A stretch of DNA of 64,000 bases from an uncultured Chromatiales bacterium. GTDB taxonomy: Bacteria; Pseudomonadota; Gammaproteobacteria; Poriferisulfidales; Poriferisulfidaceae. The notes below the pieces were generated by a model. It was not told the DNA's origin and did no database searches. It saw only the letters and a program-made list of their open reading frames with translations. The stretch lies in contig CAZGIH010000020.1 in NCBI GenBank assembly GCA_964526195.1, positions 12,803 to 76,802 on the forward strand, in the 5' to 3' direction. This document shows, piece after piece, positions 3,967-64,000 of the stretch (the first letter of the stretch is position 1; every line of letters begins with the position of its first letter). A program made the position numbers and the translations under genes.

Positions 3967-4053
3967 GGAGAGGTGGCAGAGTGGTCGAATGCGGCGGTCT
4001 TGAAAACCGTTGAACCGAAAGGTTCCGGGGGTTCGAATCCCTCCCTCTCCGCC
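3967..4053 (+). tRNA. tRNA-Ser (anticodon UGA)
   Basis: The acceptor stem GGAGAGG pairs with CCTCTCC, followed by discriminator G and CCA. The anticodon stem GCGGT pairs with ACCGT around the loop CTTGAAA (anticodon TGA). A long variable arm is characteristic of type II (Ser) tRNAs, and the T-loop is GTTCGAATC. Confidence 0.9.
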
Positions 4054-4078
4054 ACACGGACGTTGATGGACTACTCGC

Positions 4079-20141: not shown

Positions 20142-20250
20142 CTTGATAGAGATTGTGGTGCCCTCTAATCCTACAGACATCGAATGGTTGCAGTAACGGA
20201 TAAAATTTTTTTATTTTCAATCATTTATAGAAACGAATCGTCTAAACATC

Positions 20251-20279
20251 AAAACACAGAGAAACTTAGGACTATAATG
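20251..20279 (+). promoter_or_regulatory. Candidate sigma70-like promoter for the islet gene
   Basis: Consensus -10 TATAAT at 20274-20279; weak -35 AAAACA at 17-nt spacing; AT-rich upstream region. Confidence 0.3.
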
Positions 20280-20329
20280 ACGACTCAAATGAAATTACAG
20301 ATTATTTGGATTTTTTAGGAGAAAAAATA

Positions 20330-20767
20330 ATGGGCGTACAGGCGATTGATGTGGCCGCCTACATTCTTAAAGAGCTTGGCACAATGCCCGCCATGAAGCT
20401 CCATAAGCTTGTCTATTATTCTCAAGCATGGTCTCTTGTGTGGGACGACAAGCCCATTTTCCATGACCGGATTGAGGCATGGGCAAATGGCCCAGTCATC
20501 CGGAATTTGTATAACAAACACAAAGGAAGGTTTCGTGTGGGCAGCATTAAGGGCGCCGAACGGACATTGCTGAACTCCGAACAGTGTGAAACCATAGATG
20601 CTGTTCTTGATTACTATGGTGACAAGTCTTCGCAATGGCTCAGTGATTTGACCCACATGGAGGCTCCGTGGCAAGAAGCACGAGCAAAAGCGGGTCTTGC
20701 CAGTGGACAACGCGGAAACGCATGTATCACTCATGCATCTATGGCTGAATACTACTCTGGTTTGTAA
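20330..20767 (+). CDS. Panacea-domain (DUF4065 / GepA-SocA-like) protein, antitoxin-type domain
   Basis: 145 aa from the ATG with AGGAGA 8 nt upstream; KLHKLVYYSQAWSLVWDDKPIFHDRIEAWANGPVIRNLYNKHK matches the DUF4065 core. About 40% GC against about 65% in the flanks. Ends at TAA 20765-20767. Confidence 0.7.
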   Translation: MGVQAIDVAAYILKELGTMPAMKLHKLVYYSQAWSLVWDDKPIFHDRIEAWANGPVIRNLYNKHKGRFRVGSIKGAERTLLNSEQCETIDAVLDYYGDKSSQWLSDLTHMEAPWQEARAKAGLASGQRGNACITHASMAEYYSGL

Positions 20768-20773
20768 AGCAAC

Positions 20774-21217
20774 TTGGGCAGGAAGCCAGCCAGAAAATTA
20801 TCCAAATCATCCGAACTCCCCCGTCCCACTAAAAAAGCAAAGAGTGGCGGGGATTCGGGCAAAGACGGTCATTTGTCCTGGAGGTTCAGTGCGTGTGACA
20901 AGAACGGTCCTTGGCCTTGGTTGGGGCTATCAGATCCCGAAACACATCAACGTGTAATAGAGAAATTATCAGGTTTTGAACAACTGAACCCAGAGCAAAT
21001 TAAAAAAACAGGGAGTCATCCTATAGAGGTTGGTAAACTTGTAAAAGACGCTAGAGACCGCCTTCAGCAACTTCATAAAGATGATGTGGATGAACTTTAT
21101 TCGTTCCGCATTTCTAGCAGAGAAAGAGTTTGGTGCATAAGGAAACAGAATGTTATGGAAGTCTTGTGGTGGGATCCAGAACACCATGTCTATCCAACAC
21201 AGCCTAGTAATACCTAA
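20774..21217 (+). CDS. 147-codon ORF in the same frame as the Panacea gene, separated from it by one TAA and two codons; no ATG or RBS; possible C-terminal portion or readthrough product
   Basis: A long open frame in AT-rich DNA. The only in-frame starts are TTG. The C-terminal stretch DELYSFRISSRERVWCIRKQNVMEVLWWDPEHHVY loosely resembles the final strands of RelE/ParE-fold toxins. Confidence 0.4.
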   Translation: MGRKPARKLSKSSELPRPTKKAKSGGDSGKDGHLSWRFSACDKNGPWPWLGLSDPETHQRVIEKLSGFEQLNPEQIKKTGSHPIEVGKLVKDARDRLQQLHKDDVDELYSFRISSRERVWCIRKQNVMEVLWWDPEHHVYPTQPSNT

Positions 21218-21337
21218 ACTACTTTTCCGACTTCAAAAAACTAGAATCATTCAGATGGCTTGGCTGGAAACCGCCTTTATGGGCATTTGCCGCTCGGCAT
21301 GCTCGGTCGCACTTGGCAAGTTATCCATACAATCCCT

Positions 21338-21347
21338 CGCCTGATGG
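21338..21347. repeat. Right copy of the 10-bp direct repeat CGCCTGATGG
   Basis: Exact match to 20124-20133; lies where high GC resumes, upstream of sppA. Confidence 0.5.
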
Positions 21348-21394
21348 CCGACCCCGAGAGTCCAGTACAATCGGCAATCTAGAGGAAAGCCGCC

Positions 21395-22318
21395 ATGGAT
21401 GAAAAAGAATCCGCTCTCGTCGTTGCGGTCCGCGAACTGACCGCCGAGACCCGCCGTGCCCGACGTTGGCGAACCGCGTTCGCCACGATTCCGTTTCTTA
21501 TCCTGCTGCTGATCCTGCTCGCGATGCTCGGAGGAGAGTCCTCGTTGCCGAGGCAGGATGCGCACACTGCCCGGATCGACGTGTTCGGCCCGATCGTGCC
21601 CCAGGCCCCGGCAAGTGCGGAATTCATCAACCAGTCGCTGCGCGAGGCATTCGAGGAAGAACAGGCAAAAGGGGTGGTGTTGCGCATCAACAGCCCCGGC
21701 GGATCGCCCGTCCAGGCGGATCGCATTAGTTCGGAGATCCAGAGGCTGAAGGCGGAATACCCGGAAAAGAAAATCTATGCGGTGGTCGAGGACCTGTGCG
21801 CGTCTGCCGCGTACTACATTGCTGTCGAGGCAGACGAGATCTACGTCAACGGTTCCAGCCTGGTCGGCTCGATCGGTGTGATCGCCAGCGGGTTCGGTTT
21901 CGCCGAACTGATCGAAGAGTGGGGCATCGAGCGGCGCGTAACGGCTTCCGGGCGGCATAAGGCGATGCTCGATCCGTTTCTGCCGCAGGATCCGGAGGCT
22001 GAGGCACATCTTCAGAATCTGGTGGATCGGATCCACCAACAGTTCGAGAACGCTGTCAAGGATGCCCGGGGAGAGCGTTTGACGGCCTCGGACGAAGAGG
22101 TGTTCGACGGGCGGATCTGGACCGGCGACCAGGCGCAGGAGATGGGGCTGGTGGACGGATTTTCGGATGTTGCGCAGGTTGCGCGCGACCAGGTCGGGGC
22201 CGAATCAGTGGTGAATTACACCTATGAGCCGGATTTCCTGGAGCGCGTGGCGGACCGGGTTGGTGCCCGGCTGGCCCAGATGGCAGAATCTTGGTTGCGC
22301 AGCCCGGTGCGGTTCTAG
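21395..22318 (+). CDS. sppA: Signal peptide peptidase SppA (36K type, S49 family)
   Basis: 307 aa; N-terminal membrane anchor; LRINSPGGS active-site Ser motif; RBS GAGGAAAG. Confidence 0.9.
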   Translation: MDEKESALVVAVRELTAETRRARRWRTAFATIPFLILLLILLAMLGGESSLPRQDAHTARIDVFGPIVPQAPASAEFINQSLREAFEEEQAKGVVLRINSPGGSPVQADRISSEIQRLKAEYPEKKIYAVVEDLCASAAYYIAVEADEIYVNGSSLVGSIGVIASGFGFAELIEEWGIERRVTASGRHKAMLDPFLPQDPEAEAHLQNLVDRIHQQFENAVKDARGERLTASDEEVFDGRIWTGDQAQEMGLVDGFSDVAQVARDQVGAESVVNYTYEPDFLERVADRVGARLAQMAESWLRSPVRF

Positions 22319-35111: not shown

Positions 35112-35968
35112 GTCGGGCCCTGGAAGTGGAGCAACAGCAGCCAGAACCCTGAACTGGCCAGCAATAACCCGGTTATCGTTCGGAATAGCCGCGCAGGGCT
35201 TGGAAGGGCCTTTTCGACGATCACGAAAAGCGCGATAGCCGCGACCCACAGCATGTTCATCATGCCGACGGCGAACAGGACCAGCATCAGCGCCCAGCAG
35301 CACCCGATGCAATACAGTCCGTGTTCAAAAGACATCTGCAGGGCGCCAGCCCGGCCGTCTTTCCAGCGGGCAAGCAGGAACTGCATGGGTGTTCGGCACA
35401 GGGTGAGGCAGACATCTTTCCATGGCGTCCACTGGTACAGGCCCGCCACGATCAGCAAAATGCCGCTGAACAACTGGCTTCGACTGTCCATCATGGGGTC
35501 GAGCAGCCCCCATTCGTGCAGGGGCCACTGCACGACCGAGATCACTGCGGAAAACGCGGCCCAAGAGGCGAGATAACCGACCAGAAAGATCATCCAGGGG
35601 ACGATTTTCAAGGTCTGCCGGCTCCGGTTCCGTTGTACGACCCGGTACATCCGCAGCATCGGCACGGCACTGGGCGTCATCATCGCGACCATCATGATCG
35701 ACCACATGGCGAACAGCATCCAGAAGTCGTATCCGCTCCAGCCGCCGACTCCGGCGGGCGGAGGCATCCACGCGATAGAGGGCCCGCCCCGCATCATGTC
35801 GCGCATCATCCATTCCATGTACAGCATCCAGCCCCACCCGCTGGCGGTGACGGCGATGACGGCGCCGATGAGGGTCCAGCGTTCAGCCGTCGGCAGGGGC
35901 GCGAATTCAGGAGTGGAGGCGGTGGCAGGCATGAGCGAAGCTCCCGCGGCCATTTTAACAGGTGGCAT
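35108..35968 (-). CDS. DUF2182-family polytopic membrane protein (predicted metal-binding)
   Basis: Multiple TM helices; HGLYCIGCCW motif; start codon ambiguous. Confidence 0.6.
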   Translation of the reverse strand: MPPVKMAAGASLMPATASTPEFAPLPTAERWTLIGAVIAVTASGWGWMLYMEWMMRDMMRGGPSIAWMPPPAGVGGWSGYDFWMLFAMWSIMMVAMMTPSAVPMLRMYRVVQRNRSRQTLKIVPWMIFLVGYLASWAAFSAVISVVQWPLHEWGLLDPMMDSRSQLFSGILLIVAGLYQWTPWKDVCLTLCRTPMQFLLARWKDGRAGALQMSFEHGLYCIGCCWALMLVLFAVGMMNMLWVAAIALFVIVEKALPSPARLFRTITGLLLASSGFWLLLLHFQGPT

Positions 35969-35997
35969 ATGTTGGAAGATGGGGATATAGTGGCCTA

Positions 35998-36963
35998 ATG
36001 AAAGCGGTAAATCGAGACAAGCCGGACCAATGGAAAGAAGACATTATCCGGTCAGTCGACATGTACAACAAGTGGTTTATCAGATTTGCGCCAAAAGCGT
36101 ATCGGGATGTTCGAGAGCAGACAGCCGAGGATGTCAAAAAGATGTTAAAAGCGACGGGCAATTTCAGAAAAATTGATGTAGCATTGCTCAAGGCATTTCC
36201 TGCTGTGTTGCCGACACTTCGGATGACCACTTCTCCACCGCTTGCAATAGATCGCTTGGTAGGACTCTCGGGCGCTTCAGCCAACCTTGTCAAAGTGATG
36301 GAAAAACAAGGCAAGCTTCCCTCTCGGATGTCACCGAGGGAATTGGATGCCAACCTTAGGAAAATCAGCAAAACGATCCAGAAAATGATTGATCCGGACA
36401 TTTTTGGCTGGTTGAAGAACGACAGAAAACCATCTCGACAGGACTTGTACCGGGCCGCGACAATTGTGGCTGACCGGTTATGCGGTGCTGTTGCAAACCC
36501 GATTATTCGCAATGCTCAGGAAAGAAGACAGCTTGCTACCATCGGGAAGTGGCTAAAGAATCGTGGCTATTTGAAGATTTCACCAGGAGAGGGAGCAAAA
36601 TATGATGAAATGCAGCCGGGAACATATTCGTTCCGACTGAATGTGCCAGCCGAGCAGGATCAAACTGGTAAATCAGTTAATATTCCTATGGATGTTGCCG
36701 TGATGCCTAAAAATGCGAAAGTGAGGAATTTGCCGCTTCTCATAGAGGCAAAATCTGCGGGTGACTTTACAAATGTCAACAAGCGCCGAAAGGAAGAAGC
36801 CACAAAAATGAGTCAATTGCGGCGAACCTATGGCAACAACGTGCGGTTTATTTTGTTTCTATGTGGATATTTCGACAGTGGCTATCTCGGCTATGAAGCA
36901 GCAGAAGGTATCGACTGGGTGTGGGAGCACCGTGTCGATGATCTCGAAAAATTTGGGATTTAG
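35998..36963 (+). CDS. Putative type II restriction endonuclease (PD-(D/E)xK), partner of the downstream methyltransferase
   Basis: IPMDVAVMPKNAKVRNLPLLIEAK gives a D...EAK nuclease motif. Its TAG stop abuts the methyltransferase ATG. About 47% GC against about 65% for the host. An alternative GTG start lies at 35962. Confidence 0.55.
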   Translation: MKAVNRDKPDQWKEDIIRSVDMYNKWFIRFAPKAYRDVREQTAEDVKKMLKATGNFRKIDVALLKAFPAVLPTLRMTTSPPLAIDRLVGLSGASANLVKVMEKQGKLPSRMSPRELDANLRKISKTIQKMIDPDIFGWLKNDRKPSRQDLYRAATIVADRLCGAVANPIIRNAQERRQLATIGKWLKNRGYLKISPGEGAKYDEMQPGTYSFRLNVPAEQDQTGKSVNIPMDVAVMPKNAKVRNLPLLIEAKSAGDFTNVNKRRKEEATKMSQLRRTYGNNVRFILFLCGYFDSGYLGYEAAEGIDWVWEHRVDDLEKFGI

Positions 36964-38550
36964 ATGGCTAGAAGTGAAATTGCGACGCTGGAGAAGCATC
37001 GTTTGATGCTTCAGGGGCAACTGGACTCAAAAAAGCATCAAGTTGAACGGAATCGGATGGGGCAATTCGCCACGCCTCCAGAATTGGCAGTGGACATTCT
37101 CCGTTATGCTGAAACCCATAGCGGGATCAACGAAAGAGTCCGTTTCCTTGACCCAAGCTTGGGAACCGGGTCGTTTTATTCAGCTTTGCTCAAAGTGTTT
37201 CCACAAAACCGCATTGATTCTGCTGTAGGCTACGAAATCGATTCCCATTATGGAATTCCTGCGGCAAATTTGTGGGAAAAGACAGGCTTGGATGTCCGTT
37301 TGAGTGATTTTACGCGGGCTGAAGCGCCACCAGATTCTGAAAAGTTTAACCTGCTTGTTTGTAACCCACCTTACGTTCGGCACCATCATATTGACAGTGG
37401 AGAAAAACAGCGCCTGAAGGCCTGTTTGCAGAAAGCGTGCAGCATGCGGCTCAGTGGATTGGCCGGATTGTACTGTTATTTTCTTGGGTTAAGCCATAAG
37501 TGGCTGGCCGAGGGAGGGCTTGCGGGCTGGTTGGTGCCAAGCGAATTTATGGATGTGAATTATGGTGCTGCAGTAAGGAATTACCTGCTAAATAACGTGA
37601 CGCTGCTGCATCTGCATCGATTTGATCCAGACGATGTGCAGTTTGAAGACGCCTTGGTGTCTTCGGTTGTGGTCTGGTTCCGCAAAGCGAAACCGCCGCT
37701 AGAACACCACGTCAGGTTCACATACGGTGGATCGCTTGGCAGCCCAAGGCTGGAACGTTTGGTGCCCGCCGAGACGCTGTGTCGTAGCTCTAAGTGGACA
37801 GGCTATCCGGCAAAAGAGGACGGTGATAAAGCAAATGTGCCAGTTTTGGGTGATTTCTTCAGCATTAAGCGGGGACTGGTGACCGGGGGCAACCGGTATT
37901 TCATCTTGACACTTGAGGAAATCAAGTACCGTGGATTACCTCGAGAAGCATTTCGGCCCATATTGCCGAGCCCGCGTTATTTGCGAGAGAACGAAGTAGT
38001 AGCCGACGGGGATGGAAACCCGGTGCTGGGCCGTCGTTTATTCTTGCTTGATTGCCGACTGGGAGAGGCGCAGATAAGGAAGAAATATCCAGCCTTGTGG
38101 AAATATCTTGAAGAAGGGGAAGCACTGGGTATAGCCAAACGCTACCTCTGTCGGCATCGGACACCTTGGTATACACAGGAAGAACGGCCGCCAGCGCCAT
38201 TCGTATGCACTTACCTTGGAAGAAAGGGAACAAAAAACGGGCGGCCGTTTCGCTTCATACTGAACCACTCTCGGGCGACTGCCGCAAATGTCTACCTCAT
38301 GCTCTACCCTAAAGGACCGATTGCCCGAGCCTTAGAGGAAGATCCGGACTTGAAAAAGAAACTCTGGAAGTTTCTCAATGCAATTCGTCCCCAGACAATG
38401 CTGGATGAGGGACGAGTCTATGGTGGGGGGTTGCATAAGCTTGAGCCAAGAGAATTGAGTAATGTACCGGTTGCGGAATTTGCGGAACTATTGCCGGAAC
38501 CAGCACGATTGCAGTCCGAAAAGCAAGGAGAATTATTTGTGGCAGTTTGA
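36964..38550 (+). CDS. Gamma-class N6-adenine DNA methyltransferase (Eco57I/TaqI-like) with C-terminal target-recognition domain
   Basis: 528 aa. Motif I FLDPSLGTGSF precedes motif IV LLVCNPPYVRHH, the gamma-class order. The low-GC composition is shared with the upstream nuclease. Confidence 0.85.
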   Translation: MARSEIATLEKHRLMLQGQLDSKKHQVERNRMGQFATPPELAVDILRYAETHSGINERVRFLDPSLGTGSFYSALLKVFPQNRIDSAVGYEIDSHYGIPAANLWEKTGLDVRLSDFTRAEAPPDSEKFNLLVCNPPYVRHHHIDSGEKQRLKACLQKACSMRLSGLAGLYCYFLGLSHKWLAEGGLAGWLVPSEFMDVNYGAAVRNYLLNNVTLLHLHRFDPDDVQFEDALVSSVVVWFRKAKPPLEHHVRFTYGGSLGSPRLERLVPAETLCRSSKWTGYPAKEDGDKANVPVLGDFFSIKRGLVTGGNRYFILTLEEIKYRGLPREAFRPILPSPRYLRENEVVADGDGNPVLGRRLFLLDCRLGEAQIRKKYPALWKYLEEGEALGIAKRYLCRHRTPWYTQEERPPAPFVCTYLGRKGTKNGRPFRFILNHSRATAANVYLMLYPKGPIARALEEDPDLKKKLWKFLNAIRPQTMLDEGRVYGGGLHKLEPRELSNVPVAEFAELLPEPARLQSEKQGELFVAV

Positions 38551-54249: not shown

Positions 54250-54349
54250 CCGGCTATTTTGTCAAATTTCTAAAATCCCCTGAAACGGCTGCCGGAAGGA
54301 GCCCGCGACGGAGCAGATGGTTGCAGGGAACTCGGGTCGAAAAAGCCCT

Positions 54350-55384
54350 TTACTCAGTTCCCGAATGCTTGGGTTTACGGGCCAAGAAGAAAAACGCCGG
54401 GGTAAAGAGACCGGATTCGCCTCCCGCGACCAGTGCGTCCGCTCCCCTGTTCAGCATTGTGCTGACCATGGTGGAGCCCTTCGGAATGATCCGCAGCGTC
54501 TCCCCGACTCTTAAGGTCAAATTGGTCAGGGCGCGCCCGATGGGCGTGCGAGGAATGCTCGCGAGACTGAGGTCGCGACCCTGCAGGGCGCGATACCAGG
54601 GCATACCCGGATCCGCTTCAGGGGCGAGGTCGCGGGCTTCCAAAAACTCGAACCCGGCCGCACTCAATGCGGGACCGATTTCAGACGTGACGGCGATATC
54701 CGGTAGCCCGTTCCCTTTCTCGATGTCTTTCTTGATCCGAAGGTGCTCGGCATTCTCCGGATCGAAGTCCTCGGTGAGACACCACTCGTAACCCGCGAAG
54801 CAGGCTCCCGGGCACAGGATGCGGAAGACCTCCCGGAACGCTGCGGTCTTGTCCGGCGCATGGGGCATGGACTCGATCGCGATGGCGGCGTCGTAGGAGT
54901 TGTCGTCCTCGGGAATCTGCATGAAGTCGCCGTGGATGAAGCGGCACAACGACTGGATGTCTTGGCTTTGTGCTTCGGCGCGCCTGATCTGGTAGGCGTT
55001 GTTGTTAAGCCCGACGAAACTGGCCCCGGAGTAACGGGCCAGCGTGCGCATTGGTCCGCCGATCCCGCAACCCAAGTCGATAACCTGCATCCCGGGTTTC
55101 AGGGACAGTTGGTCGGCTAGGAAATGCTCGTGCCTGAGCAGCGACTCCTTGAAGCTTTCGCCGCGGAGCCGGGGCGCGAAGTGAAAGGACTGGCCCCAGC
55201 CAAATTCGTAGAAATCGGTCGCTAGGTCGTAGTAGTGATTGACGAGTGTCTGATAGTCCTCTTTCCTGTTCTCCAGGTCGTCGTCGTGGAGCCCGGTGTA
55301 TTGATCGACCGCTTGGGTTACTTCATCCGGAGTGAGGTCCGAAAAAGAACGGGAACTCGATTGCTTGGTGGAAGTGCTGCTCAT
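54350..55384 (-). CDS. Sterol C-24 methyltransferase (ERG6/SMT family), SAM-dependent
   Basis: Start at the internal Met (MSSTSTK...). YYDLATDFYEFGWGQSFHF matches the SMT region-I hallmark (YEYGWG..FHF). SAM motif VIDLGCGIGGP. About 344 aa. Confidence 0.85.
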   Translation of the reverse strand: MSSTSTKQSSSRSFSDLTPDEVTQAVDQYTGLHDDDLENRKEDYQTLVNHYYDLATDFYEFGWGQSFHFAPRLRGESFKESLLRHEHFLADQLSLKPGMQVIDLGCGIGGPMRTLARYSGASFVGLNNNAYQIRRAEAQSQDIQSLCRFIHGDFMQIPEDDNSYDAAIAIESMPHAPDKTAAFREVFRILCPGACFAGYEWCLTEDFDPENAEHLRIKKDIEKGNGLPDIAVTSEIGPALSAAGFEFLEARDLAPEADPGMPWYRALQGRDLSLASIPRTPIGRALTNLTLRVGETLRIIPKGSTMVSTMLNRGADALVAGGESGLFTPAFFFLARKPKHSGTE

Positions 55385-55413
55385 TCGATTATCCTGCCAG
55401 TTCGCGTTCTTCT

Positions 55414-58400
55414 TCAAGAAGGAGCAGGCGCGTTGGGCTGCTCTTCCAAAGCCGCTGCCGCCAAAGGCACCGCGTCGCTCGCAATTGCGCCGGTGGCAAG
55501 GGAATCGGCGGTTGCCAGTTCCAGCCGGGCCCGGCGCCGCTGCTCGTAGAGGCCGAGGGCGCGCAGGGGGAAATACTGCCGATACAGGACGTAGTCCAGC
55601 AGGGCCGTACGGAAAAAGACTCCGGCCATGTCTTGCTTGGGCCATGCGCCATCCGCATCCTGGGTGTTGAGCAGGAACCGGACGCCCTGCGAGATCGCGG
55701 CCCAGTTGGGGTCCTCCGCCTCAAGGAGCGCAATCAATGCCCATGCGGTCTGGATGACCTGGCTTTCATCGTGCGCAATGTACTGGCCGGTGAAGCAACC
55801 GCTGTGGTGCTCACCCCATCCCCCGTCTCCGCGCTGACGGTCCAGCAACCACCGGCAGGCCAAGCGTAGCGCCGTATCACCCGGACGGGCTCCGGCCGCA
55901 AGCAGGCCCCTGATCCCGAAGGAAGTGCCGTAGATGAACTGAACTCCCCATACGCCGCGCCACGACCCATCGCTTGCCTGGGTTCGGCGAAGCCAGGCGC
56001 CGGCTCGCGACATGGCATCCGTCACTGCCTGGTCCGTGATGTCTGAAAAGTGCTTCTTGCAGGCGGCGAATGCCGCGAGGCAAGAAGCGGTGCACTCGAC
56101 ATAGGAATGTTCAGTCATCGACTCGCCGAACATTTCGGCTGGATTCAGCCATTCGAGCCCGATTACGGAACGCTGTGCTTCATAGCTGCCAAAGCCGCCA
56201 TCGCGGTTCTGACCTCGCAGCATGAACTGGATCGCATCCTTGAGCATGGCCGTGTTCGTCGTCCCGCGGTGGACGGCGATAATCCCGAGCACCGCTTCCG
56301 CGGTGCAGTCGGTGACTGGCCAGCCATGCCACTGTCCGGCAAAGCACCAGCCACCCTTGGGGTCGTTTCGAAAAGCCTCACGAAATCCTTCGAAACTGGT
56401 CTTGATTTGTTGCGTTTCCAGGAAATCGGCTCCACGCTGGAGGGAATTTTGAACTTCAGGGGCCAGATCGAGTCCGGACATTGTGTCCAATGCCTGCAGG
56501 GCGAAGCCGGTATCCCACGAAATGCTTCTCGCCCCGGTGACTCGTGCCCCGTATTCCTCGTCTTCCCAGATCCAGTCGTCCGACTTCGCGAGTGCCTGGC
56601 GACTGTCGGGATCGTTTGGGTCGCGCAGCCATAAGGCCAAGATGTTGAGGAGCCCGCTGACCGGGGAGATACTCGTGTGATTGGTCGTTCGAAGTTCCCA
56701 TTGGATGCGCTCGGTGATCGCGTCCATGCATCGAGCACGCAGGTATTGACTATGGAATCGTTCAAACAATTGCGAAAACCCGTACCCGATCCGGAGCCAT
56801 ACACTGGGCCGCGCATGGAGGTCGGCGCTTCGCAGGCGATTGCGGCCCGCGGAAAAGCCGACATTGGCAAAGCCCTCGGGGTACAGTTCTTCTCGCAGTG
56901 ACGCGATCAAAGGCGTGACGGGTGCCTGAAACCGATGTGAGTAGACGGCCGCCATCGCCATGTAGATGAGCCGGGTATGGCAATACCAGTTGGAAGGGTG
57001 CAGCGGAATCCAACGCGGCAGACTCCACAGTTCTGGCAGGATGGCGTTGATTCCGCGCCAGTCGTATAGATTGAGGAGCGCCAGCCAGAATTTCCCCCAG
57101 CTCGGAATGCCGAGAACTCCTTCGGTTTGCAGGAATTCCTGGGCAGGTTTAAGCAGCGGGTCATCCCGCTCGATGCCGAGCAGTCTTGCCGCGACGTAAA
57201 CCAGCGTGGTAACAAACAAGTTGGGGGGCGGGTACTCGTGCAGGCCCCATGCGCCTCCTTCTAGGCGAGTCTGTTCGAAAGACCGCAGCACGCGTCGGCG
57301 CCGATCGGGATCGAGCGACTGCCCCATGACGTAGTGCAGCAGTACGTACTGCGCGGTGAGCATGGGGCACCAGACCATCTCGCCTTCCCAGGCGCCATCC
57401 CCACCCTGGAGACTCAGCAGGCGCTCGCTCGCGCTCTTCAACGCCGGACCAGCATCAGGCGATTCGACCGTCCATGGGCGGGCAGGTTGAGAGTCGTTGG
57501 TCTTCGACGGGATGGAGACCAGGAATGTGCGGGACCAGGTGTCCCGAATTTGCTCGTCCTCTCCTTCGCCCGTGCTTCTCACCCGATGCAACATCCGGGC
57601 ACCCCGCAGCAGCCATTTGATTCGGCCCGAGAGTGAATTAAAGGTGTCTCGGGCACGTCGCCAGGCAAGTTTGTCGAGAGATCGCGGCATTTCTCCGGCA
57701 ACCGCCCGGGCCATCGTCGTAAAAAATGCAGAACTCAGGTGAATGACCGATGTGTCTTCGCAGGCGAGTAAACGCATGGTCCGGTCGCGCATCGTAGAAC
57801 TTGCCCGCCAGCCTCGGTAGGCTGCATGCCGGAGAGCCGCCACCTCGGTCCGATGATCAGCAAAGACCTCGTAGAGTCCTATGGCAAGGAATTCCGGGGC
57901 CCGGATCGCCCGGAAGCGCTTCTTGGTGAAGTCGCGAAAGTCCCCGTTTTCGGCGAGTGCAAGTGCATCACCGAAACCAAGGGTGATTCCGACCGCCGAC
58001 ATGGGGTGGTAGTGCCCGGCCGCATCGCCGATCAGTACTCGATGCGGGCTCCCGTAGCTAACGCGCGGCCTTAGTTTATTGCTGGCAGTGCGAAACTGCC
58101 CCGCCCGCAGCGCTTCAACAAATGCGGGCCTGACTGATTCCGGCAACCAACCGGTGTACGAGTCCAACAGGAACCCAATCCGATCCCGGGGTATCCAGCG
58201 ATCCGCCGGGACATCAACGACGATGCGCACGCCGCGCTCTCCGAGGCGGTACATGAGGATCGGCCCGGGTCCACCTCCCAACACGTACCCATAACCCTCC
58301 AACGGCAACGTCACGTCGTCGACCAGGACTCCCACCATCCACGAGCAAGTTTTGTGGTTCGTCGGCAAGCCCAGCGATCGACGCACGACCGAACCCCGGC

Positions 58401-58875
58401 CATCGGCGCCGACGATCCGCGTGGTCGCGACGGACTCATCGGTCCCGTTTCGAGTAAAAGTGATTCGTCCGTCTACAACCTCACGGACTTGTGCATTGAA
58501 AATGAAATCAATGCTCGATTCGTTCTCGATCGCTTCGTGCAGATGCGAGACGAGTGCCGAATGCTCACAGGCCAATCCGTGAGCACCGTCCGGATAGGGA
58601 AGTATGATCGGTTCCGAGTCGTCTTCCGGGTACACCACGAACCCATTGCCTGCACCGATGGGAGGCTGCGTGTCGATCCCGACCCCGATCTCGCGCAGGA
58701 TCTGCACGGCGGGGGGGTGCAGCCATTCTCCCGCCAGTCGCTTGGAAGCTTCGGGGCTCGCTTCGAGCAGGACAACCCGGGCACCTTTTCGCGCGTGGGC
58801 GAGCGCACACACACTGCCGACTGGTCCCCCGCCGACAATCGCGACGTCGTAATGCCGGGAGGGGGGGATGCTCAC
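55414..58875 (-). CDS. Single ORF encoding squalene monooxygenase (N-terminal) fused in frame to oxidosqualene cyclase (C-terminal)
   Basis: N-terminus: FAD Rossmann DVAIVGGGPVGS and the squalene-epoxidase motif GDAAGHYHPMSAVGITLGFGD. C-terminus: terpene-cyclase QW repeats (RDGGFGSY, GDGGWGEH) and the oxidosqualene-cyclase catalytic motif VTDCTAEA. No stop separates the two domains. Probable GTG start overlaps the CYP51 stop (GTGA). Confidence 0.85.
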   Translation of the reverse strand: MSIPPSRHYDVAIVGGGPVGSVCALAHARKGARVVLLEASPEASKRLAGEWLHPPAVQILREIGVGIDTQPPIGAGNGFVVYPEDDSEPIILPYPDGAHGLACEHSALVSHLHEAIENESSIDFIFNAQVREVVDGRITFTRNGTDESVATTRIVGADGRGSVVRRSLGLPTNHKTCSWMVGVLVDDVTLPLEGYGYVLGGGPGPILMYRLGERGVRIVVDVPADRWIPRDRIGFLLDSYTGWLPESVRPAFVEALRAGQFRTASNKLRPRVSYGSPHRVLIGDAAGHYHPMSAVGITLGFGDALALAENGDFRDFTKKRFRAIRAPEFLAIGLYEVFADHRTEVAALRHAAYRGWRASSTMRDRTMRLLACEDTSVIHLSSAFFTTMARAVAGEMPRSLDKLAWRRARDTFNSLSGRIKWLLRGARMLHRVRSTGEGEDEQIRDTWSRTFLVSIPSKTNDSQPARPWTVESPDAGPALKSASERLLSLQGGDGAWEGEMVWCPMLTAQYVLLHYVMGQSLDPDRRRRVLRSFEQTRLEGGAWGLHEYPPPNLFVTTLVYVAARLLGIERDDPLLKPAQEFLQTEGVLGIPSWGKFWLALLNLYDWRGINAILPELWSLPRWIPLHPSNWYCHTRLIYMAMAAVYSHRFQAPVTPLIASLREELYPEGFANVGFSAGRNRLRSADLHARPSVWLRIGYGFSQLFERFHSQYLRARCMDAITERIQWELRTTNHTSISPVSGLLNILALWLRDPNDPDSRQALAKSDDWIWEDEEYGARVTGARSISWDTGFALQALDTMSGLDLAPEVQNSLQRGADFLETQQIKTSFEGFREAFRNDPKGGWCFAGQWHGWPVTDCTAEAVLGIIAVHRGTTNTAMLKDAIQFMLRGQNRDGGFGSYEAQRSVIGLEWLNPAEMFGESMTEHSYVECTASCLAAFAACKKHFSDITDQAVTDAMSRAGAWLRRTQASDGSWRGVWGVQFIYGTSFGIRGLLAAGARPGDTALRLACRWLLDRQRGDGGWGEHHSGCFTGQYIAHDESQVIQTAWALIALLEAEDPNWAAISQGVRFLLNTQDADGAWPKQDMAGVFFRTALLDYVLYRQYFPLRALGLYEQRRRARLELATADSLATGAIASDAVPLAAAALEEQPNAPAPS

Positions 58876-60260
58876 TGGAAAATGCTGGCCTGTGGGCGGC
58901 GGCGGTAACGGACCCAGCAGGGTTCCCTGGGGCCTGTCACCCAACTGCCGTAATTCGGTTCGGGAAACTCGGTGATGGGCTCAAAATCGAAACAATCAAA
59001 CAGCACGGTCCAGATTGCTTTCAACTGCATGTAAGCAAAATGTTCACCGATGCATCGATGTTTGCCGCCGCCGAAACTGATCAAGGCGTAGTGGTGCTGT
59101 TTGCCCTCGGATGCAGGTGGAGCGAACCGGTCCGGATTGAAGCGGTTCGGATCGGCAAACAGGTGCGGCAACCGTTGAGAGACCGCCGGCGACACCATGG
59201 CCAGGGCGCCGGCCGGCACGACATGGTCCTTGTAGTGCAAGGGTCTGAGCACCTTGCGGATCAGCATGATCAACGGCGGGTGCATCCGCTCGCATTCACG
59301 GATGGCATGCTCCAGTATTACTTGGTGCCTGAGGTTCTCGTAGCTCACGGTTCCCGCCTCGCGGTAGGTGTCTTGCACCTCGTCTTTCACCCGCGCCAGG
59401 TATGACGGTGCCCTCATGAGTTCCAGAAGAGTCCAGGTTGCGAGCACTGCGCTGGTGTGCTGGCCCGCGAACAACACCGTCAGCAGGATTCCGGTAATCT
59501 CGTCGTCGCTCGGGGCGTGGCCATCCTTGTAGCGAGCATTCATGAGGGTCTGCATGAAATCGTCAGGCTGGGCTTCGGTCCGCCGGCGTTCCGCCATGAT
59601 CTGGCCGAAGAGTTTGGCGACTTTTCGCCGGGCCCGGTCGCGGCTCCGATGTGCCGGAATCGGGAGATAGGGAAAAAAGAACCCCAAGGTGTTGATGCCG
59701 TTTTGCAGTTCGTGGTAAGCCTCGGCGAATCCTGCGTCCAGCTGGGTCCGGACCTCTTCTCCAATGAGGCAGCGACTGGCGATTTTGACGGTGAGTTCGT
59801 TCATTGCGTGGGGCAGATCGACTTCCCCACGCTCGCCGAGGTCCTCGGCGAACTGCCAGGTTTCCTTGAACATGATGCGGGCGAACCGGCGCATCGCGGC
59901 TTCGTTGAGTGCCGGATACAAAAATCCCAATTGCTCGAGCATCAGTTCAGGCGTAGTGTCGTAAGCTACGCCGCGCCCGAAGATGGGCACCGTGAACTGG
60001 TAGACCTCTTTGGCGCTGAGTTGGTCTTCGGGTGCGTGGAAGTAGAAATCGTGAGCTTCGGGCCCGGTGAAGAGGAAGAACTCGCGCGGGCCGAGCCGGA
60101 ACCGGATGAGTTCGCCTTGCTCGCGCCAGCCGCGCTGCAGCATCGCGATCGGGTCTTTCTGGAAATCCAGCAGATGGCCGATCAGCGGCCACTTGCCCGC
60201 GATCTCGGGAATGGCCCGGGCCTCCTGCGGCGAAAGTGGGGTGGAACGTACGGTGGTCAT
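58872..60260 (-). CDS. Sterol 14-alpha demethylase (CYP51), stand-alone P450 without ferredoxin fusion
   Basis: Start at the internal Met (MTTVRST...); I-helix FAGQHTS; heme loop FGGGKHRCIGEHFA; about 463 aa. Confidence 0.88.
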   Translation of the reverse strand: MTTVRSTPLSPQEARAIPEIAGKWPLIGHLLDFQKDPIAMLQRGWREQGELIRFRLGPREFFLFTGPEAHDFYFHAPEDQLSAKEVYQFTVPIFGRGVAYDTTPELMLEQLGFLYPALNEAAMRRFARIMFKETWQFAEDLGERGEVDLPHAMNELTVKIASRCLIGEEVRTQLDAGFAEAYHELQNGINTLGFFFPYLPIPAHRSRDRARRKVAKLFGQIMAERRRTEAQPDDFMQTLMNARYKDGHAPSDDEITGILLTVLFAGQHTSAVLATWTLLELMRAPSYLARVKDEVQDTYREAGTVSYENLRHQVILEHAIRECERMHPPLIMLIRKVLRPLHYKDHVVPAGALAMVSPAVSQRLPHLFADPNRFNPDRFAPPASEGKQHHYALISFGGGKHRCIGEHFAYMQLKAIWTVLFDCFDFEPITEFPEPNYGSWVTGPREPCWVRYRRRPQASIFQ

Positions 60261-60274
60261 GTCGTCAGGTCGCC

Positions 60275-61381
60275 TCAATAGACGAACGGCAGCATCGCGA
60301 AACGCACTCGCTTCGTGTACCGCTCCCAGAGTTCGCCGTACTTGGCGCGGCAGCGGCGATCGTCGCGTCTTGAGCGATGCGACAACAGCCCCGCCAACCA
60401 CGCGGGCAACAGGTAAGGCACCCAGGATGCGAATCCGGTGGTCAGGGCGAACGAAAGGTAGATGCAGATCTCGCCGGTATAGTTGAGATGCCGCCCGATT
60501 CCCCAAAATCCGGAGACCAGCAGGTGCCCGTCCAGGGACTCGGCGGGTTTCCCCCAGATCGTGGCGTGAGAGTCACGCTTGAAACGGTGCTTCTGCCCGT
60601 TGGCGCCGCGGAAGACCCAGAAGCCGAAGACGAACAGCAGGGTGATTGCGACGGCAGCGACGGGGGGCAGGGGATCGGTTGCGTGAACCAGCCACCAGCC
60701 GGCGAGGCAATAGAAAAACGGGACCAGTACATAGTCTCCCCAAACCAGCATCCACCCGAAGCGTTCGCTGACGATGTCCCAGGTGTGGACCATTCCGTAT
60801 TCGAAGTGGAAGTAGTTGAGGACGTACAGGAAAGTGAAGGTCTGGTAAAGCATCATCGCCAAGGTCAACTCGCCGTAGGTTTCGTACTGCACGGCGGCGA
60901 ACGAGACGTTGAACAACGCGAGGCCGATGAGGGAAGGGCGGTAGCTGAAAAACTTCAAGTCCACCCCGAACCAGGTCGGATGGCCTTCCACGCCATAGAA
61001 GAAACCTTCCAATCCCTTCGGGGAATCGCCCTGGGTCCGGGTGCCTTGGTAGTACAGCAAGGCGGAAAAAGCAAACGCGAATATGTTCGCTACCACGAAC
61101 AGGGCGAGAAAGTGGGTATACAGCACCGAAAGAGAGAACCAACCGGAGACTTGGGCAAGTCCTCCCACGATCATGGTCAGCAGGAACAGGGCGAGGCCGT
61201 TGCTCCTGTAGATCCTTGATTTTCCATTGTAATCCGGTCCCGTAACCCGGCGTCCGGGCAACAGCATCGAACCCAGGAACAGGAAGCCGAAGAATGCCAG
61301 CATCATGGCTGCCGCGTCGAGCAGGGTGCTGCCGGACAGCGCAGTCAGCGAGAAGGGCAGGTCAGGCATAAGCGTTGCCAT
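60275..61381 (-). CDS. ERG4/ERG24-family sterol reductase (C-14 or C-24(28) reductase type)
   Basis: 368 aa polytopic membrane protein; family signature LLVSGFWGIGRHLNYTGE. Confidence 0.8.
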   Translation of the reverse strand: MATLMPDLPFSLTALSGSTLLDAAAMMLAFFGFLFLGSMLLPGRRVTGPDYNGKSRIYRSNGLALFLLTMIVGGLAQVSGWFSLSVLYTHFLALFVVANIFAFAFSALLYYQGTRTQGDSPKGLEGFFYGVEGHPTWFGVDLKFFSYRPSLIGLALFNVSFAAVQYETYGELTLAMMLYQTFTFLYVLNYFHFEYGMVHTWDIVSERFGWMLVWGDYVLVPFFYCLAGWWLVHATDPLPPVAAVAITLLFVFGFWVFRGANGQKHRFKRDSHATIWGKPAESLDGHLLVSGFWGIGRHLNYTGEICIYLSFALTTGFASWVPYLLPAWLAGLLSHRSRRDDRRCRAKYGELWERYTKRVRFAMLPFVY

Positions 61382-62459
61382 TCTCCGCTTTGCGTGTCAG
61401 GTATTCGCGCCACTTGCGCACGGTCACGTCCTGGAAAGCCTCCACCACGGGATTGAACTCGACGGTCGGGGCGTCCCAATGTTTCTCGTAACCCTCCTGT
61501 TCTCCTTCGAGTGCGTATTGATCCTGAGAAAGCAACGGGCCGATGAGGATGCGGTTCGAGATCTTTAGAACGAAGGTCATGGCGAAACGGGGAATGTGCA
61601 CCGGCAGCAAGGGTATCTTCAGCGACTTGAAGTAGAACAAAAAGAAGGTCCGGGTTGTCCGCTCGTCGATGGGCAGCACGAAAAGCCAGTGTTTGATCCA
61701 GTCATCGGTGTTCGACCACTGGTAAGGGTATTGGTAGCAGAGATCCATGTGATTGGTGTCGAGCCGTTTGTGGTCGACGAACAGCCCGGAGATACGCCCG
61801 CGTCCGACCTGCGTGTCGTAGGAGAGGTGCACATCATCACCGATAGTCTCGCAGCGGGTGAGGGCAGCGCCGACGAAAGGCCGGTATTGACGGTGCAGGT
61901 GGGCATGAGAGAAGTCGCTCACGTTGTCGATCACCATCGAGTGGTGGGCCAACCAGGTGAAAGTGAGCGGGACGCAGGCCCATCGGTCGGGTCCCTCGAG
62001 TTCAGGAATGTCCGGGATCTGCCGTGACTCCGCTTTCTCCGGATCCCCAGGGAACAACCAGACCAGGCCGTATCGGACCTTCACGGGATAGGATCGAATC
62101 GAGACATTCTGACAACTTTCTCCGAGGTGCTCGCGAGGCCCCCCGGCACGTTGCCCCCCTCCGTCGTATTGCCAGCCATGGTAGGCGCAGACGAGCCGGC
62201 AGCCCTCAACATGGCCGAGAGAAAGCTTGAGTTGGCGATGGGCGCAGCGATCCTCGACCGCATGGAACGAACCATCCTTTGCTCGGAACAATGCGATGGC
62301 GTGTTTCCAGAAAACAACCTCGGTCACGGTTCCCGGCTTGACGCGGCGTACTTCTTCGACCGCGTACCAATAATCCGGGTCCATGCCCGCGGCGCGCGCT
62401 TTCTGTCGCAAATTGCTGGCTTCATCGAAGCCAGGAGGCGGGCTTGTCATTGAGTCCAT
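61362..62459 (-). CDS. Rieske [2Fe-2S] non-heme iron oxygenase, SdmA-like (sterol C-4 demethylation type)
   Basis: 365 aa; Rieske box CAHRQLKLS...CAYHGW; C-terminal catalytic domain; paired with a 3beta-HSD-like gene. Confidence 0.7.
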   Translation of the reverse strand: MDSMTSPPPGFDEASNLRQKARAAGMDPDYWYAVEEVRRVKPGTVTEVVFWKHAIALFRAKDGSFHAVEDRCAHRQLKLSLGHVEGCRLVCAYHGWQYDGGGQRAGGPREHLGESCQNVSIRSYPVKVRYGLVWLFPGDPEKAESRQIPDIPELEGPDRWACVPLTFTWLAHHSMVIDNVSDFSHAHLHRQYRPFVGAALTRCETIGDDVHLSYDTQVGRGRISGLFVDHKRLDTNHMDLCYQYPYQWSNTDDWIKHWLFVLPIDERTTRTFFLFYFKSLKIPLLPVHIPRFAMTFVLKISNRILIGPLLSQDQYALEGEQEGYEKHWDAPTVEFNPVVEAFQDVTVRKWREYLTRKAENGNAYA

Positions 62460-62460
62460 T

Positions 62461-63648
62461 TCAGCCTCCGTCTGAAGTGATGGGTGTGCCTTGATCCGGC
62501 ATGAGTTCTTCTACTTGTCCTGTGCCGTCCATGCACGGGGGTTTCGCGTCCGGGTTCGTGATCGCCTTGCGCTGGTGGTAGTGAAAGGCGTAGGCTTCGT
62601 GAACCGCGGCGCGGATGCTGGTCGGACGATAACCGAGATCTTCTTTCGCCTTGCTGTTGTTGGCGTGGCGGCACTTTTGCAGCAGGCGAATGGCGCCGGG
62701 AGTGAAACGCTGAGGGAAACTTGGATGAAACCGGCTCAGGTAAAAACTGGCCACTTCTGAGAAAGCAAGCATTGCACGGACCGGAATCCGTCGGTTGGGT
62801 CGCGGGATGCCGGAGACTTCCTCGTACAGGTCGATGATGTCGGAGATGGTTTTGTATTCGGAACTGAAGATGTATTTCTCGCCTGTGCGCCCGCGGCCCA
62901 TGCACAACCGGTGTCCTTCAACAATGTCCCGTGCCGCGACGAACTCGAAGCCGCCATCGACGTAGGCATGGAGCTTGCCGTTTGTGTAATCGCACAAGGT
63001 TCTACCCAATCGTGAAGGGAAGAAATCGCTGCCCCCCACAACCGCGCAACACGTTGCGACGATGACATCCTGTCCGGCCGCCGCGGCGCGCCAGCACACC
63101 TGTTCGACGAGCGTCTTGCTGCGCTCGTAGGGCATCGTGCGTTCCATGGGATAGAACAGCATCGTCTCGTCGCTGGGGGCGGAGGGGTCATCCAGGTTGT
63201 ACCCGACCGCGCTGAAAGAGCCCGTCACGACCACCCGGCCGGCTTCCGTCTCCCGTGCCGCCTGCAGCATGTTGCGGGTGCCGAGAACGTTGCACTCGTA
63301 TATTTCCCGACGATGGGCGTGGTTTCCTTCGATGGTTGAAACCTTGGCCGCGCAGTGATAGACGCCTTGGCAGCCCTCGACCGCACGCCTGACGGAATTC
63401 AAGTCCCGCAGGTCGCCGAACACGCGTTCGACCTCAAGGCCTTCCAGCGCCTCGTTGTTCTCTTCGTGTCTTAGCAGCACCCGGACCCGGGTGCCTTCGT
63501 TGAGTAGCCGACGCACGAGATTGGCACCCACGTGCCCGGCCGCGCCGGTGACGAAAACGGGTGCAGCCGATGAATTGTCGGGTGTGCTCGATCCTGAAGT
63601 CATCTTGTGCCCTGATTCCGAAACTTTTTCATCCATGTTTGACGGCAT
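62461..63648 (-). CDS. NAD(P)-dependent 3beta-hydroxysteroid dehydrogenase/decarboxylase-family enzyme, SdmB/ERG26-like
   Basis: Extended-SDR motifs VFVTGAAGHVGANL and Y-E-R-S-K; an alternative start at Met16 lies at 63603. Confidence 0.72.
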   Translation of the reverse strand: MPSNMDEKVSESGHKMTSGSSTPDNSSAAPVFVTGAAGHVGANLVRRLLNEGTRVRVLLRHEENNEALEGLEVERVFGDLRDLNSVRRAVEGCQGVYHCAAKVSTIEGNHAHRREIYECNVLGTRNMLQAARETEAGRVVVTGSFSAVGYNLDDPSAPSDETMLFYPMERTMPYERSKTLVEQVCWRAAAAGQDVIVATCCAVVGGSDFFPSRLGRTLCDYTNGKLHAYVDGGFEFVAARDIVEGHRLCMGRGRTGEKYIFSSEYKTISDIIDLYEEVSGIPRPNRRIPVRAMLAFSEVASFYLSRFHPSFPQRFTPGAIRLLQKCRHANNSKAKEDLGYRPTSIRAAVHEAYAFHYHQRKAITNPDAKPPCMDGTGQVEELMPDQGTPITSDGG

Positions 63649-63925
63649 CGAGGGTACGCAGGCAGAACGCTCAACAACGGCCAGGATATGCCAGCGTCCG
63701 CCGCTTCATAGCCGCCTTGTTTCAAGCCAATCAAGCTACCGCAATCACCGATCTGCATCCAGCCATCCCTCGCAATATGACTGATGGCATAATTCTAACA
63801 AACTTCATAAAACTGAAGCGTCAAGGATTTTTGAGGCCGTTGCAGGCTTCCGTCAGGTGTCTTGACTATGCTGGAGTGTGTCTGGAAACGGATAGATGGT
63901 CGCGAAAGTCTGCAAGCCGCCTTCA

Positions 63926-64000
63926 CTTGGCAAGAGTGATGGCAAGAGTGATTACGACGCTGAGAATGGTGGTCATGACGCCTCCGCCGATGAGCAGGAA
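63926..64000 (-). CDS. C-terminal end of an unidentified hydrophobic protein, truncated by the window edge
   Basis: The frame is open to the window end and reads ...FLLIGGGVMTTILSVVITLAITLAK*. Confidence 0.25.

Follow-up and report, generated by a model that had tools for sequence, protein, structure and literature searches.

A putative sterol biosynthesis cluster in a Candidatus Porisulfidus-like bacterium, a probable symbiont of sponges

Introduction

Clusters of sterol biosynthesis genes have been described in several bacterial symbionts of sponges. Mohanty et al. (2020, Mar Drugs 18:124, PMC7074536) reported the msbA-F genes of a gammaproteobacterial symbiont of Melophlus sarasinorum, which encode an NAD(P) oxidoreductase, a Rieske oxygenase, a sterol reductase, a 14-demethylase, a bifunctional epoxidase/cyclase, and an S-adenosylmethionine (SAM) sterol methyltransferase; squalene synthase is encoded elsewhere in that organism. 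Kelly et al. (2022, Microbiome 10:164, PMC9531527) found an ERG24-CYP51-LSS core in 115 of 537 Ircinia metagenome-assembled genomes (MAGs) from 10 phyla; the genes were under purifying selection, and their trees suggested horizontal transfer. Brown et al. (2023, Nat Commun 14:1859, PMC10070321) studied a cluster on a 444,506-bp scaffold from a Chromatiales MAG of Theonella swinhoei (Candidatus Porisulfidus sp. TsSOB). Here we describe a related cluster of six genes, at 54350-63648 of a 64,000-nucleotide stretch of DNA ("the window") from an uncultured Chromatiales bacterium (contig CAZGIH010000020.1, positions 12,803 to 76,802).

Based on protein families, motifs, and gene order, we consider it very likely that this is a sterol biosynthesis cluster of a sulfur-oxidizing, sponge-symbiotic gammaproteobacterium similar to Candidatus Porisulfidus, and that it encodes the pathway that we predict below. 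The nearest relatives share 92-93% nucleotide identity with the window and are either Candidatus Porisulfidus or MAGs from sponges. Clusters of this kind have been published before: this one is a further member of a known family, and earlier work has analyzed and partly tested a nearly identical cluster. We found nothing newer on the topic in the literature.

Results

Six intact open reading frames (ORFs), all on the minus strand and tightly packed, fill 54350-63648. We picked gene starts to agree with the lengths of homologs and with the gene calls of a close relative (locus L081). In the order of transcription, the genes encode an SdmB-like NAD(P)-dependent short-chain dehydrogenase/reductase, an SdmA-like Rieske oxygenase, a sterol reductase of the ERG4/ERG24 family, CYP51, a fusion of squalene epoxidase and oxidosqualene cyclase (SE-OSC), and an ERG6-type sterol C-24 methyltransferase (SMT). 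A sequence-only reading of this DNA, which was made without database searches, had proposed six minus-strand genes with these products at this location. The ORFs bear this out, Pfam and NCBIfam agree with all six assignments, and every peptide that had been quoted (LLVSGFWGIGRHLNYTGE, AGQHTS, FGGGKHRCIGE, GDAAGHYHP, VTDCTAE, and YEFGWGQSFHF) is found in the translations.

The junctions are short. The sdmB-like and sdmA-like genes are 1 nt apart (TGAAATG), and the sdmA-like gene overlaps the reductase gene by 20 nt (or by 8 nt with a start at the second ATG, which was chosen in the gene call for L081). A 14-nt gap separates the reductase from CYP51, CYP51 and SE-OSC overlap at GTGA, and there are 29 nt between SE-OSC and the SMT. 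The gene for MutS is on the same strand, 100 nt downstream of the cluster. Thus, the compact layout, the GTGA junction, the 20-nt overlap, the exceptional 29-nt gap, and the proximity to mutS are as the sequence-only reading had them, but the ATGA overlap that it listed is instead the 1-nt gap.

The SE-OSC fusion (55414-58875, minus strand, 1,153 amino acids, GTG start) is a single ORF with the SE family (PF08491) and FAD_binding_3 in its N-terminal part and with SQHop_cyclase_N and SQHop_cyclase_C in its C-terminal part. The epoxidase lies at about 57631-58848 and the cyclase at about 55537-57438. The epoxidase half is similar to human squalene monooxygenase (6C6N, E = 2.1e-22), and its GGGPVG and GDAAGH motifs are conserved across the fused homologs. 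The cyclase half contains VTDCTAE, and the DCTAE within it is invariant in 82 fused homologs. The best 120 homologs of the fusion are 1,107-1,181 amino acids long, and both parts are present in them.

The next gene upstream encodes a predicted sterol 14alpha-demethylase, CYP51 (58872-60260, minus strand). All of its top 56 matches in PDB are CYP51s, and the first is P450 51 (6MCW, E = 4.8e-102). The signature of the B'/C region (YQFTVPIFGRGVAYD), the AGQHTS of the I helix, and the heme loop FGGGKHRCIGE are present. A start at MTTVRS gives 462 amino acids, as in the gene call for L081, and the protein has no fused ferredoxin domain. The ERG4/ERG24-family reductase (60275-61381, minus strand, with an alternative start at 61369) matches PF01222 at 239 bits (the cut-off is 27), and LLVSGFWGIGRHLNYTGE corresponds to the C-terminal LLxSGxWGxxRHxNYxG(D/E) motif. 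Its closest solved structure is a delta(14)-sterol reductase (4QUV, E = 2.8e-74), and from this match we infer that the enzyme is specific for the delta14 bond. We take both 6MCW and 4QUV to be methanotroph proteins.

The first two genes of the cluster resemble the genes for C-4 demethylation in bacteria. The SdmA-like protein (61362-62459, minus strand), a putative C-4 methyl oxidase, has 4beta-methylsterol monooxygenase (NF052579) as its top NCBIfam match, at 406 bits and across positions 4-349 of the 351-position profile; it contains the Pfam domains Rieske and VanA_C and the ligands of the Rieske 2Fe-2S center (CAH-x16-CAYH). The SdmB-like protein (62461-63648, minus strand), a putative C-4 decarboxylase and 3-ketoreductase, has SdmB (NF052578) as its top match, at 299 bits and across positions 4-322 of 328. 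It also matches the Epimerase and 3Beta_HSD families, and it contains the Rossmann motif (GxxGxxG, as GAAGHVG) and the catalytic YxxxK (as YERSK). The ortholog in L081 was called as 379 amino acids, and the true start in the window may be an internal ATG at 63603. In TsSOB, the orthologs of SdmA and SdmB are 43-45% identical to MCA1016 and MCA1017, and its SdmB is 54% identical to the SdmB of Calothrix and 43% identical to that of Methylococcus capsulatus (Brown et al. 2023, PMC10070321). SdmAB pairs remove one C-4 methyl group in methanotrophs and both in Calothrix (PMC10202945).

The last gene encodes the SMT (54350-55384, minus strand, 344 amino acids), which has a methyltransferase domain and the C-terminal domain of sterol methyltransferases (Sterol_MT_C, PF08498, 75 bits with a cut-off of 21.7). 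Sterol-binding region I (YEFGWGQSFHF) is present, as are VIDLGCGIGGP and YEWCLT. The protein shares 96% identity with the SMT at locus L003 (IMG gene 2690455922), which is from "Chromatiales sp. 1 of 2" of Brown et al. and was tested in vitro by them (Brown et al. 2023, PMC10070321). The figure legend in the preprint of that study states that each cluster that is displayed, including the one from T. swinhoei, contains a functional SMT. In other words, the cluster in the window is nearly identical to one whose SMT works in vitro.

We also considered whether these genes might form a hopanoid cluster, with a squalene-hopene cyclase (SHC), an HpnA-like epimerase, and a methyltransferase that does not act on sterols. 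The first gene does match the HpnA model (TIGR03466) at 234 bits, and the methyltransferase has weak matches to the CMAS and UbiE families of Pfam. However, the first gene scores higher against SdmB, and the methyltransferase has Sterol_MT_C and is nearly identical to a protein that was tested as an SMT. Similarly, the cyclase half scores 720 bits against an oxidosqualene cyclase model (TIGR03463) and just 267 bits against hopene cyclase (TIGR01507); it is far closer to human lanosterol synthase (1W6K, E = 2.3e-132) than to SHC (1GSZ, E = 2.1e-50), and it has DCTAE rather than the SHC-type motif. Profile searches, which the sequence-only reading had suggested as a check, thus place the cyclase with oxidosqualene cyclases and the methyltransferase with sterol methyltransferases, contrary to the outcome (a hopene-type cyclase and a methyltransferase of the cyclopropane-fatty-acid or ubiquinone type) that this reading had named as its own refutation. 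We rejected the hopanoid reading, whose probability we consider to be negligible.

If the cluster is for sterol biosynthesis, then the N-terminal FAD domain of the fusion would epoxidize squalene made by enzymes encoded elsewhere in the genome, and the C-terminal domain would cyclize the resulting 2,3-oxidosqualene into a protosterol, which is most likely lanosterol. Next, CYP51 would remove the 14alpha-methyl group, and the ERG24-type enzyme would reduce the resulting delta14 bond. SdmA would oxidize one or both of the C-4 methyl groups, which would be removed by decarboxylation and keto-reduction by SdmB, and the SMT would add at least one methyl group at C-24. We expect the pathway to end in a delta8 sterol that bears a 24-methylene or 24-alkyl side chain and retains at most one methyl group at C-4; such a sterol would resemble fecosterol or 4-methylfecosterol.

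Several findings weigh against this pathway. First, the scores of the SdmA-like and SdmB-like proteins (406 and 299 bits) are below the NCBIfam equivalog cut-offs, which are 600 bits for both models; these models were built on proteins from Methylococcales. The pair in the window is best filed as homologs that probably work like SdmAB, not as strict equivalogs. Second, the score of the cyclase against TIGR03463 (720 bits) is below that model's own cut-off of 851, although the cyclase does pass the general model TIGR01787 (509 bits with a cut-off of 322.7). Third, when we scanned the 36 larger ORFs of the window with Pfam, we found neither a squalene synthase nor a redox partner for CYP51 or SdmA (no ferredoxin). 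Fourth, a promoter-like site in the gap before the SMT gene would permit the SMT to be transcribed separately, though just one such site was found in the cluster, while 2.3 were expected. Finally, the cyclase does not have a standard set of product-determining residues. Positions 381, 449, and 453 of human oxidosqualene cyclase are T, C or Q, and V in lanosterol synthases, and they are Y, H, and I in cycloartenol synthases. The corresponding residues of the window's cyclase (782, 850, and 854, encoded at about 56314-56532) are A, H, and V, which fits neither pattern; V453 alone is lanosterol-like.

The sequence-only reading had described the pathway as near-complete and eukaryote-like. This was overstated, because the delta8-delta7 isomerase, C-5 desaturase, delta7/delta24 reductase, and squalene synthase steps were not found in the window (among the 36 larger ORFs). 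Also, C-4 demethylation would involve the bacterial enzymes SdmA and SdmB, not ERG25/26/27.

The A/H/V triad raises the issue of whether the cyclase might form another product, such as cycloartenol, parkeol, or an arborane-type triterpenol, in which case the downstream products would be unlike the fecosterol-like sterols that we predict. A/H/V mixes elements of the lanosterol and cycloartenol patterns and is essentially invariant in 82 fused proteins (one has N at 449), and we found no biochemical test of any fused enzyme in studies of sterol clusters of sponge symbionts. On the other hand, V453 is the residue on which Mohanty et al. (2020, PMC7074536) based their call of the ortholog as a lanosterol synthase, and the oxidosqualene cyclase from the similar cluster of Calothrix yields lanosterol (PMC10202945). 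The partner enzymes (CYP51, ERG24, and SdmAB) would suit either a lanosterol-type or a cycloartenol-type substrate. Overall, a product other than lanosterol seems unlikely, and lanosterol is the likely, if unproven, product of cyclization.

Another alternative is that the cluster does not support de novo synthesis and mainly modifies the sterols of the host sponge, by C-4 demethylation and C-24 alkylation. This would fit with the absence of squalene synthase from the ORFs of the window that we scanned, and with the variation between strains in the SMT and in the adjacent tailoring slot while the core is stable (see below); shared sterol synthesis by host and symbiont was discussed by Brown et al. 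(PMC10070321). However, the SE-OSC gene is intact and under purifying selection (with a ratio of nonsynonymous to synonymous substitution rates [dN/dS] of 0.12-0.13), and its catalytic residues are invariant in 82 homologs, which only makes sense if squalene is cyclized. In addition, Brown et al. (2023, PMC10070321) list a homolog of squalene synthase at another location in the genome of the closest relative. We therefore view the modification of host sterols alone as improbable and favor de novo synthesis from squalene.

To compare the cluster to its relatives, we surveyed one genome per species and found 410 loci with a relative of the fusion protein; in the best 80 of these, nearly the whole 1,153-residue fusion is covered. 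Thus, the full-length fusion occurs in at least 80 species-level genomes. The closest loci are from Candidatus Porisulfidus and from Gammaproteobacteria MAGs, with fusion proteins that are 81-93% identical to the window's. At the DNA level, the window is 92-93% identical to the Porisulfidus loci L001, L003, and L081 across the cluster and mutS. The fusion proteins of the remaining loci are 63-76% identical; these loci are labeled as Binatia, Nitrospirales, Acidimicrobiales, Bryobacterales, Alphaproteobacteria, Nitrospinaceae, Opitutales, Rhodothermales, Longimicrobiales, Gemmatimonadetes, and others. Judging from the isolate names, we read many of them as bins from sponge metagenomes. The cluster's proteins are 63-81% identical in Binatia, Nitrospirales, Acidimicrobiales, Alphaproteobacteria, and others.

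Gene order is conserved as well. When we compared the six proteins of the window to related loci with tblastn, the five-gene core (sdmB-sdmA-ERG24-CYP51-SE/OSC) kept its order in 65 of the 81. Because the order is identical in so many related loci, the clustering is far beyond chance. Of the 65 loci, 54 also have an SMT no more than 10 kb away, and outside of Porisulfidus it is often on the opposite strand. The sequence-only reading had called the one-operon arrangement unusual, which is refuted by these 65 loci and by the published clusters (PMC7074536, PMC9531527, and PMC10070321). Between loci that are labeled as Binatia, Nitrospirales, or Gammaproteobacteria, protein identities are 78-88%. 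These values indicate that this family of clusters has spread by horizontal transfer across many phyla, as Kelly et al. concluded.

Within the genus, the history seems to be different. The GC content at third codon positions (GC3) is 0.736 for the cluster and 0.751 +/- 0.037 for 19 housekeeping genes of the window. Relative to three Porisulfidus relatives, dN/dS is 0.06-0.14 for all six genes, which shows purifying selection, and their synonymous divergence (dS) is in the range of that of mutS. The adjacency to mutS is likewise kept within the genus. In a broader set of 61 loci from many taxa, the GC content of the cluster tracks the GC content of the flanks (r = 0.83). We rejected the possibility that the cluster is a recent genomic island, as GC3 and dS are as in the host; the sequence-only reading had reached the same view from the host-like GC content. 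Because of its GC3, dN/dS, dS, and conserved adjacency to mutS, we view the cluster as an old, ameliorated, and vertically inherited resident within the genus.

The same observations bear on whether DNA from the sponge host was misbinned or misassembled into a bacterial contig. Homologs of ERG24, CYP51, ERG1/7, and ERG6 are typical eukaryotic enzymes. However, the genes in the window are free of introns and overlap one another, they are flanked by bacterial housekeeping genes of equal GC3, and SdmA and SdmB are bacterial-type enzymes. The arrangement is also found on closed bacterial chromosomes of 1.5-7 Mb, and the oxidosqualene cyclases from sponge metagenomes fall in a bacteria-only clade (Brown et al. 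2023, PMC10070321). Given the gene structure, context, GC3, and synteny, we rejected this explanation, which has almost no chance of being correct.

The cluster is probably a single transcription unit that is expressed from a promoter upstream of the sdmB-like gene; we base this on the spacing of the genes. The noncoding region at 63649-63805 (minus strand) is homologous to the DNA of relatives and is the presumed promoter region of the cluster, but a scan with the sigma-70 consensus did not call a site there. The sole sigma-70-like pair of hexamers in the cluster is TTGAAG-18-GATAAT at 55388-55417, in the 29-nt gap before the SMT. A scan of the cluster for terminator-like sites gave 9, which is no excess over the 9.4 expected. 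A scan with Rfam found neither a riboswitch nor any other RNA element near the cluster; its one match was a tRNA-Ser at 3967.

Identity to the relatives changes abruptly at the SMT end of the cluster. Along the cluster and mutS, the window is 88-97% identical to L001 (mostly 92-95%), but identity drops to 76-82% exactly over the SMT gene (54250-55700). The same step is seen when L081 is compared to L001 or when L004 is compared to L005. Matrices of protein identity show two allele classes of the SMT, with about 80% amino acid identity between them, that cut across the relationships of the genomes: the window, L081, L003, L002, and L004 have class A, and L001, L005, and L006 have class B. The TTGAAG-18-GATAAT site sits at the edge of this apparently exchangeable segment.

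The slot between the SMT and mutS also varies. In the window (54250-54349, minus strand) and in L001, it is an empty spacer of only about 100 nt. In L002, L003, L004, and L081, it contains genes for an FA_desaturase-family protein and for a DHCR24-like protein with FAD_binding_4 (the slot is at 14608-17572 of L003 and at 11048-13895 of L081). In L006 (14717-15627), the slot is occupied by two small ORFs that resemble toxin-antitoxin genes, judging from the NTP_transf_2 and HEPN genes that are annotated upstream of sdmB in L081. A search of the window with tblastn found no copy of the relatives' DHCR24-like or desaturase genes and no paralog of any of the six genes. By combining a class A SMT with an empty spacer like that of L001, the window forms a mosaic, which suggests recombination, or exchange of cassettes, at the tailoring end of the cluster.

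These observations can be joined with the A/H/V triad into a broader and more tentative proposal: the side-chain end of the cluster in Candidatus Porisulfidus would be an exchangeable cassette, in which SMT alleles are swapped among genomes that are otherwise 94-98% identical and a DHCR24-like/FA_desaturase module comes and goes, and the product of the A/H/V family of cyclases would perhaps not be plain lanosterol. We consider this combination to be possible, though the odds are against it. If the exchange of cassettes is true, then closely related strains of symbionts would make different sterol side chains. The swapping of SMT cassettes and the variable slot near mutS may be new, as we did not find them in the literature on sterols of sponge symbionts.

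At the other end of the cluster, the homology of the upstream DNA to L001, L004, L005, L006, and L081 ends at about 63802-63810, or about 157 nt before sdmB. Beyond this point, the window (63806-64000) contains the 3' end of a different gene (C terminus ...ITLAK), while the relatives share another flank. The upstream flank of L081 has CinA and the nucleotidyltransferase/HEPN pair.

Elsewhere in the window, three regions stand out. A XamI-type endonuclease and an Eco57I-type methylase are encoded at 35962-38550, with a GC content of 0.47-0.51 and a GC3 of 0.48-0.50 (vs. about 0.75 in the rest of the window); this restriction-modification pair is probably a recently acquired island. At 3967-5638, tRNA-Ser(TGA) is directly followed by a gene with domains of type IV secretion coupling proteins (T4SS-DNA_transf and TrwB), which may be the remnant of an element that integrated at the tRNA. 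A small ORF and a Peptidase_S49/NfeD-like gene lie at a dip in GC content (0.512 vs. about 0.61) at 20001-22000.

Discussion

Bacterial synthesis of sterols that are alkylated at C-24 is relevant to the reading of 24-alkyl steranes from ancient rocks as biomarkers for sponges or algae. It also matters for identifying the member of a sponge holobiont that produces its unusual sterols. Both issues were already raised, and partly tested, by others with an almost identical cluster, so the window does not open a new question. It adds one genome-level example, from a distinct Porisulfidus lineage, and some comparative detail: stable vertical inheritance beside mutS, purifying selection, and a variable methyltransferase end.

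Methylococcus capsulatus and other methanotrophs have the same enzyme families as the window and the same C-4 demethylation by SdmAB, but the window's SdmA and SdmB are below the equivalog cut-offs of the Methylococcales models. In methanotrophs, the sterol genes are dispersed, the epoxidase and the cyclase are separate proteins, and CYP51 has a ferredoxin domain. We know of no SMT in methanotrophs. Calothrix sp. NIES-4105 and Enhygromyxa salina (Lee et al. 2023, Nat Commun 14:2904, PMC10202945) likewise have clusters for oxidosqualene cyclization, C-14 demethylation, and SdmAB. These bacteria are free-living, their clusters include extra steps (a C-8 isomerase and others), and no SE-OSC fusion was reported in them.

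The clusters from sponge symbionts are more similar to the window. In the Ircinia MAGs (Kelly et al. 2022, PMC9531527), the core follows "DFR" and a hypothetical gene, which correspond to sdmB and sdmA, with an SMT alongside, as in the loci that we surveyed. Most of the Ircinia clusters have the SMT or FDFT1 on the opposite strand, whereas the window and other Porisulfidus genomes have a codirectional SMT just 29 nt downstream. The msbA-F genes (Mohanty et al. 2020, PMC7074536) are identical to the window's six genes in content and order; that locus was proposed to have a role in the synthesis of the sarasinoside aglycone in one particular sponge.

The cluster of TsSOB is the closest. We matched it to locus L003 (MRSX01000003.1), whose gene order agrees with the numbering of the IMG genes (2690455927-2690455920). 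The six genes have the same order and orientation as in the window and are also next to mutS, the proteins are 94-97% identical, and the DNA is about 93% identical. In contrast to TsSOB, the window does not have the two convergent genes between the SMT and mutS (for the FA_desaturase-family protein and the DHCR24-like FAD oxidase), and its upstream flank differs. At about 92-93% nucleotide identity, the organism in the window appears to be a separate species-level lineage from TsSOB, with the same six-gene cluster beside mutS.

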